Source of the DNA: a virus
Lineage: Duplodnaviria; Caudoviricetes
DNA length: 43,281 nt
Direction: 5' to 3' (one strand)
Virus record (IMG/VR): IMGVR_UViG_3300049926_000032
Coordinates: 1-43,281 of that record
The notes under the pieces were generated by a model that was not told the DNA's origin, made no database searches, and saw only the letters and a list, made by a program, of their open reading frames with translations. Shown one piece after another: positions 2,357-40,105 of this stretch. The position numbers were made by a program, and so were the translations under genes. Position 1 is the first letter of the stretch, and each line of letters opens with the position of its first letter.

Positions 2357-2767
2357 TTAGTCGCCTCCTTCAACTTCGTGGTACTCGCCGTCAGCACCAA
2401 TTACCATTTTCTTCTTAGTGGGGGGTTCACCAAGCTGAATGTCAGCTACGAAGACGCACGAGCATGGGTGATCGTTGAAGATACCCATAGCCCGCCCGTC
2501 TGTACCCATGACAATTTCAAGCAGCGTTCCGGCCCGCCCGCACCCGTAGGGGCAGATTGGGAGCATGGGGCGGTCTACACCGTGTATCTTGTCCAGCTCC
2601 CGATAATTTGTACCCCGCCCCCATTTTTGTGCTGGCTCCATCTTGCTCCCCAGCTCGTCATAAGTGAGCTTCTGTAGCTCGGCTACCTTCTGATCCACCG
2701 ACACATCTTTGCCGAAAGCATCATTTGTAGGTAGGTTAGCCACGCTTGATCCCTGTCTTTCCGACAC
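2357..2767 (-). CDS. Hypothetical protein with putative zinc-binding Cys motifs
   Basis: CPYGC and HPCSC. Confidence 0.6.
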   Translation of the reverse strand: MSERQGSSVANLPTNDAFGKDVSVDQKVAELQKLTYDELGSKMEPAQKWGRGTNYRELDKIHGVDRPMLPICPYGCGRAGTLLEIVMGTDGRAMGIFNDHPCSCVFVADIQLGEPPTKKKMVIGADGEYHEVEGGD

Positions 2768-37003: not shown

Positions 37004-37079
37004 TGGCTCCAATGACAGGGATCGAACCTGTGACCGTCTCCTTAACAGGGAGTTGCTGCTACCGCTGAGCTACATTGGA
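37004..37079 (-). tRNA. tRNA-Asn(GTT)
   Basis: Cloverleaf; loop CT-GTT-AA; encoded CCA. Confidence 0.93.
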
Positions 37080-37082
37080 TTA

Positions 37083-37168
37083 TGGTGATGTGCCTAAGAA
37101 TCGAACTTAGCGGGGCCGAAGCCTACGGGGTTACAGCCCGCACCCTCTCCATAGGGGTCTATCACACC
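37083..37168 (-). tRNA. tRNA-Tyr(GTA)
   Basis: Long variable arm; CT-GTA-AC; CCA. Confidence 0.92.
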
Positions 37169-37172
37169 ATAT

Positions 37173-37259
37173 TGGTACCCGACACAAGATTTGCACTTGC
37201 ACTCCCCGAGGGGAACCCGCTCTTGAGGCGGGCGTGTCTGCTAATTTCACCAATCGGGC
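37173..37259 (-). tRNA. tRNA-Leu(CAA)
   Basis: Long variable arm; CT-CAA-GA; T-loop TGCAAAT. Confidence 0.9.
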
Positions 37260-37260
37260 T

Positions 37261-37337
37261 TGGTACTCCGTGGGAGGATCGAACTCCCGTCTGCCGGGGT
37301 GAAAACCCGGTATCCTAGGCCACTAGACGAACGGAGC
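37261..37337 (-). tRNA. tRNA-Glu(TTC)
   Basis: CCGGG-TTTTCAC-CCCGG. Confidence 0.93.
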
Positions 37338-37342
37338 ATATT

Positions 37343-37417
37343 TGGTAGCTCGTGCGGGTTTCGATCCCGCTACTCCACCTTGAGAAAGTGGCGACTTAGC
37401 CAGTTGTCGAACGAGCC
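37343..37417 (-). tRNA. tRNA-Glu(CTC)
   Basis: CCACT-TTCTCAA-GGTGG. Confidence 0.9.
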
Positions 37418-37460
37418 ATATATATAGAACGTATATACAACCTCTATAGGGTATATATAT

Positions 37461-37535
37461 TGGGGCGAGATATGGGGGTCGAACCCATGATAACTCCGTC
37501 ACAGGGAGCCGTGTTGCCTCTACACTAATCCGGCC
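37461..37535 (-). tRNA. tRNA-His(GTG)
   Basis: CT-GTG-AC; G-1 and C73. Confidence 0.9.
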
Positions 37536-37575
37536 ATGAACCCGCTTGTTTCAGTGGCACAAACGGTAAAGCCCA

Positions 37576-37644
37576 TGGTACCCCCAGAAGGAGTTGAACC
37601 TTCGCTTTCAGGCTTAGAACACCTTCGCCTTCCCAAGTAGGGGC
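37576..37644 (-). tRNA. tRNA-Arg(TCT), 69 nt with truncated D-arm
   Basis: 7-bp acceptor stem; intact T-arm; AGGT-GTTCTAA-GCCT. Confidence 0.7.
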
Positions 37645-37649
37645 TAAAT

Positions 37650-37736
37650 TGGTAGGGATAGCAGGGGTCGAACCCGCATGAGAATTACCTCGGCTGCTTC
37701 TAAGGCAGGTGTGTCTTCCAATTCCACCATATCCCC
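37650..37736 (-). tRNA. tRNA-Leu(TAG)
   Basis: Long variable arm; CT-TAG-AA. Confidence 0.92.
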
Positions 37737-37740
37737 ATAT

Positions 37741-37814
37741 TGGAGGTTCGTACTGGAGTTGAACCAGTGTATGCGGGTTTGCAATCCGCCGCATGGCCGC
37801 TTTGCTAACGAACC
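37741..37814 (-). tRNA. tRNA-Cys(GCA)
   Basis: TT-GCA-AA; U73. Confidence 0.92.
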
Positions 37815-37819
37815 TTATT

Positions 37820-37904
37820 TGGAGCCAGTACGAGGAATCGAACCCCGATAATCTCATTACAAGTGAGACGTAATGTTGCTTTCGCACCGTTATACGATAC
37901 CGGC
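37820..37904 (-). tRNA. tRNA-Thr(TGT) with hairpin insertion in D-loop
   Basis: TCTCA-CTTGTAA-TGAGA; D-loop contains TGC-GAAA-GCA. Confidence 0.85.
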
Positions 37905-37905
37905 T

Positions 37906-37983
37906 TGGTACCCCGTGACGGATTTGAACCGCCGACTCATGGTATGTAACACCACAGCTCTAGCCAGACTGAGCTAACAGGGC
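37906..37983 (-). tRNA. tRNA-Val(TAC)
   Basis: GTGGT-GTTACAT-ACCAT. Confidence 0.92.
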
Positions 37984-37987
37984 TTAT

Positions 37988-38062
37988 TGGTGCAAGTGGA
38001 GGGACTCGAACCCTCGGTGCCTGCTTGGAAGGCAGGAAGTTTAGCCGCTAACCAACACTTGC
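37988..38062 (-). tRNA. tRNA-Gly(TCC)
   Basis: CCTGC-CTTCCAA-GCAGG. Confidence 0.92.
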
Positions 38063-38075
38063 ATGATTTAAAAAC

Positions 38076-38152
38076 TGGTACCCGCTGAGGGATTCAAACC
38101 CCCGACGACTCGGTTCCGAAGACCGACGCTCTATTCACTGAGCTAAGCGGGC
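38076..38152 (-). tRNA. tRNA-Arg(TCG)
   Basis: TCGGT-CTTCGGA-ACCGA. Confidence 0.92.
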
Positions 38153-38157
38153 ATAAT

Positions 38158-38232
38158 TGGCGCTGACTACGGGGTTCAAACCCGTGACCTTCACACTGAC
38201 AATGTGTTGCTCTGTCACTGAGCTAAGCCAGC
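38158..38232 (-). tRNA. tRNA-Asp(GTC)
   Basis: CACA-TTGTCAG-TGTG; G73. Confidence 0.88.
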
Positions 38233-38239
38233 AAATCTT

Positions 38240-38327
38240 TGGCGGAAGCTGGAGGGAACGATCCCCCACGGGTGTTACCCCATCACGGTTTTCAAGACCG
38301 ATAAGTACGCCAGCCTTACGAGCTTCC
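38240..38327 (-). tRNA. tRNA-Ser(TGA)
   Basis: Long variable arm; CT-TGA-AA; G73. Confidence 0.9.
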
Positions 38328-38330
38328 ATT

Positions 38331-38416
38331 TGGCGGAAGAACTAGGAATTGCACCTAGGCAACCTTGCGGTTGTACTCCTTAGCGGGGAGCTGCATTACT
38401 GCTCTGCCATTCTTCC
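38331..38416 (-). tRNA. tRNA-Ser(GCT)
   Basis: Long variable arm; loop CC-GCT-AA (C33). Confidence 0.9.
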
Positions 38417-38417
38417 T

Positions 38418-38494
38418 TGGCTGTCCGGGTAGGAGTCGAACCTACAAGCACCTGTTTCAAAGACAAGCCGCTGTACCAATTTGCGTACCAGACA
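38418..38494 (-). tRNA. tRNA-Gln(TTG)
   Basis: U1-A72; CT-TTG-AA. Confidence 0.92.
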
Positions 38495-38499
38495 TTATT

Positions 38500-38574
38500 T
38501 GGCTGTCTCGTGAGGGATCGAACCTCAGTCTCCTGAGCCAGAATCAGGCGTCACTACCGCTAGACTACAAGACA
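38500..38574 (-). tRNA. tRNA-Gln(CTG)
   Basis: U1-A72; TT-CTG-GC. Confidence 0.92.
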
Positions 38575-38577
38575 TTA

Positions 38578-38653
38578 TGGAGGGCTTGGCGGGGCATGAT
38601 CCCGCAACATACCGCTTAAGAGGCGGTTGCTCTACCAATTGAGCTACAAGCCC
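38578..38653 (-). tRNA. tRNA-Lys(CTT)
   Basis: ACCGC-CTCTTAA-GCGGT; T-loop ATCATGC. Confidence 0.9.
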
Positions 38654-38657
38654 GTGA

Positions 38658-38739
38658 TGTGGCTGTGAGGTTTAAGTGTAGGCTTTGTGCTATAGTCACG
38701 CACCCACTCCATCCCATTCTCGTTTAACTTCCGGCCACA
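38658..38739. ncRNA. Non-tRNA structured element inside the tRNA array
   Basis: Terminal pairing TGTGGCTG/CGGCCACA plus inner stems; no cloverleaf. Confidence 0.4.
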
Positions 38740-38755
38740 AGATTTTAATTTACTT

Positions 38756-38832
38756 TGGAGGGCCATCCGAGACTCGAACTCGGAACGTGGAGCTTAAAAG
38801 GCACCTGCTCTGCCAAATTGAGCTAATGGCCC
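38756..38832 (-). tRNA. tRNA-Lys(TTT)
   Basis: CT-TTT-AA; T-T mismatch in anticodon stem. Confidence 0.92.
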
Positions 38833-38833
38833 A

Positions 38834-38912
38834 TGGTGGAGAATGAGAGATTTGAACTCTCGACCTTCTTCTTGCAAGGAAGCTGCTCTTGTCCGGGCTG
38901 AGCTAATTCCCC
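38834..38912 (-). tRNA. tRNA-Ala(TGC)
   Basis: G3-U70; CT-TGC-AA. Confidence 0.93.
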
Positions 38913-38913
38913 A

Positions 38914-38989
38914 TGGTAGCGGTTACGGGATTTGCACCCGTGATCTTCACCTTATGAGGGTGCTGAGATAACTACTTCTCCAAACCGCA
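38914..38989 (-). tRNA. tRNA-Met(CAT), initiator-like acceptor and D-arm
   Basis: U1xU72 mismatch; A11-U24; CT-CAT-AA. Confidence 0.85.
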
Positions 38990-38994
38990 TTATC

Positions 38995-39069
38995 TGGTAC
39001 TCGTCCGTGGTGCTGGCCCACGCCCTCCACAATATAAGTGTGGCGCTCTCGCTGGTGAGCTATACGAGC
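38995..39069 (-). tRNA. tRNA-Ile(TAT)
   Basis: CCACA-CTTATAT-TGTGG; non-canonical T-loop GCCAGCA. Confidence 0.8.
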
Positions 39070-39070
39070 T

Positions 39071-39146
39071 TGGTCAGTGTAGAAGGACTCGAACCTTCGG
39101 TATCTTGCTCCCAAAGCAAGCGCCATAGCCGCTAGGCGATACACTG
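39071..39146 (-). tRNA. tRNA-Pro(TGG)
   Basis: C1-G72; TT-TGG-GA. Confidence 0.93.
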
Positions 39147-39152
39147 TTAAAT

Positions 39153-39227
39153 TGGTACTCGATCAAGGAATTGAACCTCAGTTTCTTCGATATCAGCGAA
39201 GCGCTCTAACCATTGAGCTAATCGAGC
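39153..39227 (-). tRNA. tRNA-Ile(GAT)
   Basis: CTTCG-CTGATAT-CGAAG. Confidence 0.92.
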
Positions 39228-39231
39228 ATAT

Positions 39232-39307
39232 TGGTGGCTCTAGTCGGTAACGCTCCGACCTCCCCTGTACTTCAAGCAGGTGCTTTCACTATGTAAGCTA
39301 CTGAGCC
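39232..39307 (-). tRNA. tRNA-Phe(GAA)
   Basis: TT-GAA-GT with C31xA39; T-loop AGCGTTA. Confidence 0.8.
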
Positions 39308-39310
39308 AAA

Positions 39311-39381
39311 TGGCGGGATGTTAAGGAGTCGAACCCTATCTTGCAGTTTTGGAGGCTGCTACGCTCCACAGCGTACTTCCC
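39311..39381 (-). tRNA. tRNA-Trp(CCA), first of the array, short D-arm
   Basis: GCAGC-CTCCAAA-ACTGC; G73; 71 nt. Confidence 0.87.
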
Positions 39382-39383
39382 AT

Positions 39384-39406
39384 AAAAAAGCCCGGTGGGT
39401 ACCGGG
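39384..39406 (-). terminator. Attenuator terminator immediately upstream of the tRNA array
   Basis: CCCGGT-ACCC-ACCGGG-C-TTTTTT on the minus strand. Confidence 0.85.
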
Positions 39407-39445
39407 TAGCGTGTGTGAACTTAAGCTTTTTGCTAAGCTGCCATG

Positions 39446-39562
39446 CTACCCATTCTCACTTCCCTTTTCAAAATACGATTTCACACACCACATATCGACA
39501 CGGCCCGTGGCGAGTTGCTGGGTGGGGAGAATGGTATTTAGCTGATGTATTGAATGGGACAT
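39446..39562 (-). CDS. Leader peptide (38 aa) containing all 20 amino acids: MSHSIHQLNTILPTQQLATGRVDMWCVKSYFEKGSENG
   Basis: Translated base by base; ATG lies 6 nt after the -10; TAG stop lies within the antiterminator strand GGGTAGC. Confidence 0.8.
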   Translation of the reverse strand: MSHSIHQLNTILPTQQLATGRVDMWCVKSYFEKGSENG

Positions 39563-39568
39563 GGTTCC

Positions 39569-39596
39569 ACCATAGCAAACTTTAGGCTTAAGTCAA
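39569..39596 (-). promoter_or_regulatory. Sigma70-type promoter of the tRNA operon
   Basis: -35 TTGACT (39596-39591), 16-nt spacer, TGC-TATGGT extended -10 (39574-39569). Confidence 0.75.
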
Positions 39597-39598
39597 AT

Positions 39599-39642
39599 AA
39601 AAAAGACGAACCGCCTCAGTCGTTGCAACTGTGAGGCGGTTC
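39599..39642 (-). terminator. Strong intrinsic terminator insulating the tRNA promoter
   Basis: GAACCGCCTCA/TGAGGCGGTTC 11-bp stem then GTCTTTTTT. Confidence 0.85.
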
Positions 39643-39791
39643 TCCTGCCGAGGGACTTTGTATACCCCCAAGTCTATGTTGGCTATGTTATAGCGCTTTC
39701 AACAACCTAATCGTGTAACCCAAGGTGAAGTTACGCACCCTCCGATTAGTACCTTAGCCCGCCAACAATGGGCGTATTCAGTCAGACAGTT
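39599..39791 (-). ncRNA. Candidate multi-branch ncRNA with pseudoknot potential
   Basis: TATAGT at 39803-39798; five stems read by eye; ends at the terminator. Confidence 0.5.
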
Positions 39792-39808
39792 TCCGCACTA
39801 TAAGCTAT

Positions 39809-40105
39809 TTACGCCTTAGTAGCAAGCCGCTTACGGATTTTTGACATAAGCGTTTCGTGTCTTGGGTCAATCGTCTCTAGGTAGTCTTGCTCTGTCGGGC
39901 CAGTGTATTTCGATTTATTCACTCCCCGGCGACTCGCCATGCCCCCCTTGCGGCCAGCTTCAGAAGCTAGCTCACGGTTGACGGCGAACCCACCACCTCG
40001 GCTGATTTTGCCTCCCTTACGCCCAATTTGGGTGTAGAAAGTTAGCCCGTAGCGCATCTTGTTGGTAGCAGCAGCCTTGCGGCCCCCCGCTTGAGTTCCG
40101 GCCAT
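39809..40105 (-). CDS. KGG-repeat general stress protein
   Basis: MAGTQAGGRKAA...FYTQIGRKGG...GGFAVNRELASEAGRKGG; AAGGA SD. Confidence 0.85.
   Translation of the reverse strand: MAGTQAGGRKAAATNKMRYGLTFYTQIGRKGGKISRGGGFAVNRELASEAGRKGGMASRRGVNKSKYTGPTEQDYLETIDPRHETLMSKIRKRLATKA

Follow-up and report, generated by a model that had tools for sequence, protein, structure and literature searches.

The stretch of DNA analysed here, which we call the window (43,281 nucleotides), is the record of a complete 43,281-bp virus with direct terminal repeats at its ends, and its gene content includes terminase, capsid, ERF recombinase and amidase. The minus strand carries a large tRNA array (Table 1), of which 24 genes were predicted by ARAGORN; the remaining three (Ile-UAU, Thr-UGU and an atypical Arg-UCU) were added from Rfam hits, their anticodons being assigned by eye. 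Immediately before the first gene of the array, a 215-nt stretch contains a promoter-like sequence, a short open reading frame (ORF), several complementary segments and an intrinsic terminator. The array holds no internal same-strand promoter match, so readthrough of this terminator would be needed for its transcription.

Several features of the array deserve a description of their own. One tRNA-Ile has a UAU anticodon, which decodes AUA with no need for lysidine, and ATA is codon 5 of the leader ORF. The atypical tRNA-like gene with the UCU loop is kept in both the window and its relative L368, described below. The two tRNA-Lys genes are separated by a spacer that is better conserved than many tRNAs and folds into a closed stem, in which both partners have changed in 2 of 19 pairs. 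This spacer, which gave no Rfam match, is a candidate for a new small RNA, excised from the tRNA precursor; it shares the same GAGAATGGG word with the 3' end of the leader ORF. Furthermore, an AT-rich inverted repeat, TATATATA...TATATAT, lies between tRNA-His and tRNA-Glu (37460-37418, minus strand) and might be a protein-binding or processing site.

Upstream of the leader lies a manA-like RNA, matching the full-length model with an E value of 4e-6 and conserved end motifs. Its score is below the gathering threshold of the manA family (RF01745; manA RNAs are described in PMC2864571), and we consequently name it manA-like only. Having a promoter and a terminator of its own, it would insulate the leader from transcription upstream, and, with no gene downstream, it would be a free RNA and not a 5' UTR. 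A 151-nt contig from a freshwater run (X10) matches this region (39610-39759) with three differences, and a scan for the manA-like pattern gave three loci, a chance result. With regard to the host, the nearest clusters of the neighbouring KGG-repeat protein come mostly from Saccharimonadota, the commonest phylum, and its matching cluster includes a member named from a Saccharimonadia bacterium. A host belonging to the Saccharimonadia, within the CPR bacteria, is therefore likely. This small phage also encodes Fic/Doc-family, AAA ATPase and SPFH/Band 7 proteins (2031-1534, 3989-2736 and 5260-4451, respectively, all on the minus strand), and translation itself could be perturbed by the phage Fic protein.

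Table 1. Positions of the leader elements, the tRNA array, neighbouring features and comparable loci (window coordinates and strands unless a locus is named).
Feature	Position	Strand	Remarks
Sigma70-type promoter, TTGACT, 16 nt, TG-C-TATGGT	39569..39596	-	9/12 consensus; A of the ATG at the predicted +1
Leader ORF, 38 sense codons	39446..39562	-	predicted; all 20 amino acids in residues 6-32
Segment complementary to 39457-39450, possible 1:2 helix	39527..39534	-	model-dependent; absent in L368
9-nt segment complementary to 39419-39411	39480..39488	-	competes with or crosses antiterminator
Antiterminator 5' strand (predicted)	39445..39451	-	spans last sense codon and stop codon
Antiterminator 3' strand (predicted)	39404..39410	-	CCC common to terminator 5' arm
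Intrinsic terminator CCCGGT/ACCGGG	39384..39406	-	6-bp stem plus U-tract; ends 2 nt before tRNA-Trp
tRNA array, 27 genes	37004..39381	-	all 20 amino acids; first gene tRNA-Trp, start 39381
tRNA-Ile, UAU anticodon	39069-38998; L368 1137-1207	-	missed by ARAGORN
Structured spacer RNA between two tRNA-Lys genes	38658..38739; L368 1459-1540	-	82 nt; conserved
Atypical tRNA-like gene, loop read as UCU (Arg)	37644-37579; L368 about 2497-2567	-	reduced D arm
manA-like RNA	39640..39803	-	30.6 bits vs gathering score 55.2
Promoter of manA-like RNA	39825-39797	-	sequence match
Terminator of manA-like RNA	39617-39603 plus U-tract	-	sequence match
KGG-repeat protein	39809..40105	-	host clue (Saccharimonadia)
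Promoter, SD, 15-22-codon Trp/Cys/Pro leader, terminator	L214-L308, 37 IMG/VR loci, AT-rich phages		directly before tRNA-Trp clusters
Promoter-like site, short leader, terminator	L213, L224, L253, L257, L307, L316, L320, L322, L329		lone tRNA-Trp

Composition of the leader ORF

The original prediction, made from the letters alone, had described a promoter, an ATG 6 nt further on, a 38-codon ORF, a terminator and tRNA-Trp in this order, and each of these elements was found again at its position. Promoter, ORF, two overlapping helices, terminator and array are shown in the sequence as predicted features, and a short ORF placed between promoter and terminator, as in ribosome-mediated attenuators, is also present in L368. 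Promoter matches of this quality occur in the region at chance level (9 found, 8.3 expected), and the promoter and terminator matches each have, on their own, a chance frequency. A second 9/12 match lies inside the leader ORF (39471-39443). Their significance stems from position and conservation and not from the match itself. As the start codon lies 6 nt past the -10 box, the ORF is likely leaderless, starting at +1.

Its amino-acid content was recounted and agrees with the prediction. The shortest stretch containing all 20 amino acids is residues 6-32, and residues 16-32 comprise 16 different amino acids in 17. The twentieth amino acid enters at codon 32, and the codons beyond it only repeat those already present. 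After codon 1, ten of the 20 amino acids are used a single time each, and residues 18-31 hold nine of these ten; there is no run of any amino acid longer than two, and one Ala codon.

Such completeness is rare by each of the comparisons made. Among the 43 phage proteins, it occurs in none of 9,183 windows of 27 residues and in 8 of 8,710 windows of 38 residues. Of 38-codon ORFs that are random or shuffled, 0.5-1.0% reach it, as do 154 of 400,000 random 32-codon runs (0.04%), and only one of the 291 small six-frame ORFs of the genome, this leader, possesses it. The 32 distinct codons of the ORF are not beyond chance, since 5.8-6.6% of random ORFs reach this count, and the distinct-codon number was rejected as evidence on this ground (about 6% by chance). 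Peptide searches revealed no protein homolog of the leader peptide (one match was to a repetitive 2,075-aa protein), as expected if the leader acts in cis.

Predicted folding of the leader transcript

The three pairings named in the prediction were found in place, and the RNA was folded with a masked ribosome footprint at every codon in turn, either at full length and equilibrium or in a cotranscriptional model, in which the transcript is cut ahead of the terminator 3' arm. In these models, the antiterminator is predicted to be mutually exclusive with the terminator and to be masked by a ribosome at the stop codon. In the cotranscriptional model, the terminator 5' arm is sequestered with a probability of 0.93-1.0 for stalls at codons 2-33 and is freed (sequestered probability of 0.16 or less) for ribosomes at codon 34 or further on, as far as the stop, with or without pairing across the ribosome. 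The codon-by-codon folding thus yields a two-state switch with its boundary at codon 33/34, just past codon 32, where the set of 20 amino acids is completed.

At equilibrium, the full-length leader is ON for stalls at about codons 6/7 to 33/34, with a dip at codons 16-21 due to the 9-bp helix, which lowers the predicted readthrough there (terminator probability of 0.4-0.8). When pairing across the ribosome is allowed, codons 21-31 are largely OFF (terminator probability of about 0.8). In the absence of a ribosome, the leader is OFF at equilibrium (0.95) and ON in the cotranscriptional model. Dinucleotide shuffles of the leader reached the amplitude of the switch in 4 of 300 and 4 of 200 cases, so that both predicted folding and shuffles support the translation-coupled terminator/antiterminator switch that had been proposed ahead of the tRNA operon. 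The 1:2 element of that proposal fared less well: it blocks the antiterminator in the equilibrium model, but not in the cotranscriptional model, and it is absent in L368.

The position of the boundary bears on what the leader could sense. AGT (codon 35) and GAG (codon 36) lie beyond it, and the leader contains no AGR or UUR codon. For four of the 27 tRNAs (Ser-GCU, Glu-CUC, Arg-UCU and Leu-CAA), a cognate codon is consequently missing from codons 1-33, and eight of the 27 are unsampled by the sensing window under strict wobble. The leader is therefore all-amino-acid and not all-codon. Of the 'pan-codon' sensing put forward originally, the presence of all 20 amino acids within the predicted sensing window holds and is significant, whereas coverage of the whole tRNA set does not.

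Relatives and parallel leaders in other phages

A run from a second soil study contains the leader region (39443-39593) without any difference, and a third study yielded a relative with 94% identity (run X2, record 9). In this relative, none of the 12 listed indel events falls in the ORF and seven fall in the 427 nt of flanking non-coding DNA; by hand arithmetic, the listed indel letters account for all 17 gaps and a net length change of -5. This is only suggestive, the chance that the ORF would be missed being about 0.11. The 3' arm of its terminator is kept, the changes being in the loop, and the U-tract is extended. A third phage contig (X6 record 20), 44 kb long, carries the 3' arm and U-tract of the terminator before a Trp-like tRNA.

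A metagenome scan with the terminator plus tRNA-Trp pattern returned 97 loci, one of which, L368 (OCTA010010073.1), is a homologous, syntenic array with 69% identity over 1,687 aligned columns. The head of this array has a 10/12 promoter with TG and a GTG exactly 6 nt past the -10 box, the same offset as in the window. Its leader ORF (L368:704-772) has 22 codons and is 48 nt shorter than that of the window; its stop codon runs into a 10-bp antiterminator made of other letters with the same CCC at the end, and both terminator arms are kept. The L368 leader switches in folding, none of 300 shuffles matching its amplitude, and is ON without a ribosome in both the equilibrium and the cotranscriptional models; in the latter, when pairing across the ribosome is allowed, the 5' arm is released only partly (0.67). 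A weak promoter match lies over its terminator (801-830) and could bypass it.

The L368 leader contains 13 amino acids, lacking A, R, C, E, H, K, W and an internal M, and 62% of random ORFs of its length reach this number. The 20 amino acids of the window leader match the 20 served by its array, whereas in L368 a 13-amino-acid leader precedes an array that also covers all 20. On this single comparison (n=1), conservation extends to the switch but not to the all-20 content. The expectation that homologous leaders would keep the ORF, its completeness and its pairings was thus borne out in L368, the only diverged homolog found, for the switch layout, but not for the all-20 content or the 1:2 element. 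Other scans added no homologous array: the 9-bp helix pattern gave seven viral loci and the tRNA-Gln pattern seven loci, all without tRNAs; the spacer-RNA pattern gave 1 and 8 loci in viral and genome contigs, respectively, with no tRNAs; the CCGGG-terminator plus Trp pattern gave three loci in viral contigs, none homologous; and the terminator-only pattern gave at least 120 loci, none homologous among the matches listed. None of the 34 terminase relatives (of 80) searched for tRNAs had more than two, and blastn and tblastn against GenBank phages gave single-tRNA matches or none.

A looser form of the terminator plus tRNA-Trp pattern, with at least 120 matches in viral contigs, uncovered a parallel family of leaders. 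Among the matches listed, a promoter together with a short ORF is present at 40 of 63 distinct loci; within the same matches, 38 of the 40 leaders contain Trp and 38 contain Cys, none has more than 15 different amino acids, and most are SD-led and about 20 codons long. They have no sequence homology to the window leader, and many of them are related among themselves. After two short unrelated ORFs and one mis-picked start had been left out, 37 leaders were folded, and 32 switch in the cotranscriptional model and only three at equilibrium. In the models, these leaders show the same design arrived at independently, a G-run at the last codons being predicted to pair with the C-run of the terminator. 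Most of the loci with a lone tRNA-Trp (Table 1) have no clear ORF of at least 10 codons. Stretches taken from six isolate phage arrays had no terminator-leader before a first tRNA, a weak control as some of the heads may be missing from these stretches; they contained one weak hairpin, before an internal tRNA-Ile.

A putative attenuator of a tRNA operon and its precedents

Taken together, we consider it probable that the 215-nt stretch is a ribosome-coupled transcription attenuator gating the 27-gene phage tRNA operon. RNA polymerase would start at the ATG, and a ribosome would load on the leaderless end. When decoding is fast, the ribosome would cover the G-rich strand (codon 34 to the stop), the terminator would form and transcription would end 2 nt short of tRNA-Trp. 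A delay at or before codon 33, or any lag, would let the G-rich strand pair with the CCC of the terminator 5' arm, and transcription would continue into the array. The new tRNAs would then relieve the stall, closing a negative feedback loop. The all-20 leader would in this way serve as a general gauge of decoding capacity, with a resolution at the level of the amino acid and not of the codon or the tRNA. That its content was selected for general sensing of tRNA loss is plausible, the case being built on one leader.

Other explanations have to be weighed against this attenuator. One is a generic translation-coupled switch that reads ribosome lag or coupling, as caused by antibiotics, initiation failure or host dormancy, the all-20 content being incidental to the lineage. 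L368, which keeps the switch with an unremarkable leader, speaks for it, as do the ON state of both phages without a ribosome in the cotranscriptional model and the example of toiL, a general-stress uORF (PMC12121999). We nevertheless hold it to be unlikely, since a full set of amino acids within 32 codons is so rare in random runs and ends at the switch boundary, and since half of the amino acids are used exactly once after codon 1, nearly all of these (nine) within residues 18-31.

The terminator might instead close a small stand-alone gene, for a peptide or small RNA, the array being transcribed by leaky readthrough or through a phage antitermination factor with no ribosome control. Antitermination mediated by phage proteins or RNAs is well established, the individual promoter and terminator matches are at chance frequency, and neither the sequence nor the length of the leader is conserved in L368. 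Yet the antiterminator is kept there with changed letters and the stop codon in register, shuffles rarely give the switch, and a peptide devoid of protein homologs is what a cis-acting leader would be expected to have, which together make such a gene rather improbable. It is still harder to credit a structured non-coding RNA, such as a riboswitch or a tRNA-sensing RNA, in which the ORF would be a chance occurrence. The minimum-energy fold is indeed a long rod closed by pairing of the 5' end with 39456-39440, and two further structured RNAs lie nearby; but the overall folding energy is not beyond chance (z = -1.58 only; 13 of 200 shuffles are as stable), the rod is not conserved in L368 with its ORF 48 nt shorter, and 39382-39596 gave no Rfam match above noise. 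A T-box riboswitch in particular is not indicated, there being no Rfam T-box hit at E values up to 5-10.

It has long been asked why phages carry tRNA genes, and the main answers have been compensation of codon bias and replacement of destroyed host tRNAs. If the proposed attenuator is real, a translation-sensing switch heading a complete array would mean that the phage makes tRNAs on demand, and the replacement idea would become directly testable with a 215-nt reporter. Leader-peptide attenuation would be extended to tRNA genes, to leaderless ORFs and to a likely CPR phage, and a compact all-amino-acid biosensor would be at hand. In a broader and more tentative proposal, to which we give somewhat less than even credence, phages, among them small ones infecting CPR bacteria, place entire operons of backup tRNAs under the control of compact leader ORFs in which selection has favoured a full set of amino acids. 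Any loss of charged tRNA, be it by anticodon nucleases or by a nutrient cut-off in an auxotrophic epibiont, would then call up the full phage tRNA set, as a self-correcting and trigger-agnostic counter-defence.

Leader control of this kind has been described for a few bacterial genes, and we did not find it in print for tRNA genes: searches of open-access PMC and bioRxiv gave no leader-peptide attenuator acting on tRNA genes or phage tRNA arrays. A comparable published array is the Anabaena trn operon, an L-array of 26 tRNA genes (PMC8421152, PMC10272220); it is mobile and near-complete and is induced under translational stress, as would be the array of the window, but it is controlled by the repressor TrcR (PMC10272220). 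A term search of the main text of PMC8421152 shows that attenuat-, leader and terminator do not occur there. A patescibacterial phage with four tRNAs has been described, the tRNA passages of that paper making no mention of regulation (PMC13059738). At the E. coli topAI-yjhQ locus, toiL is a multipurpose uORF at which, as proposed for the window leader, stalls are sensed at various positions; it differs in acting through RBS occlusion and Rho-dependent termination, and its target is a toxin-antitoxin pair (PMC12121999).

Classical leader-peptide attenuators include trpL, hisL, thrL and ilvL, as well as pheM before pheST. As predicted for the window leader, their stop codon lies at the antiterminator strand, their antiterminator overlaps the terminator 5' arm and their output feeds back on aminoacyl-tRNA supply. 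They are SD-led, repeat one to three amino acids in runs and form a defined pause hairpin (1:2), whereas the window leader has a doubtful 1:2 helix and its output would be tRNA. Membership of the trp/his type was rejected, tandem or clustered control codons being absent, with no run above two and ten amino acids used once. By analogy, the proposed mechanism has published precedent in the whiB7 uORF of M. smegmatis, which is the closest published system: this uORF contains 19 of the 20 amino acids, its composition determines which starvations induce readthrough, and it is activated by tRNA and synthetase knockdowns (PMC10274678). The whiB7/wblC attenuators of actinobacteria couple a uORF to an intrinsic terminator/antiterminator, as is proposed for the window leader; the former control a chromosomal transcription factor with an Ala-rich uORF (25-40%) (PMC10274678), whereas the latter heads a phage tRNA operon, has no dominant residue, fits all 20 amino acids into 27 codons and probably begins at +1. 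With tRNA-Trp as the next gene and one Ala codon, it was not assigned to whiB7/wblC. As proposed here, the window leader would work like whiB7 and like the trp-type attenuators, and it belongs to neither family.
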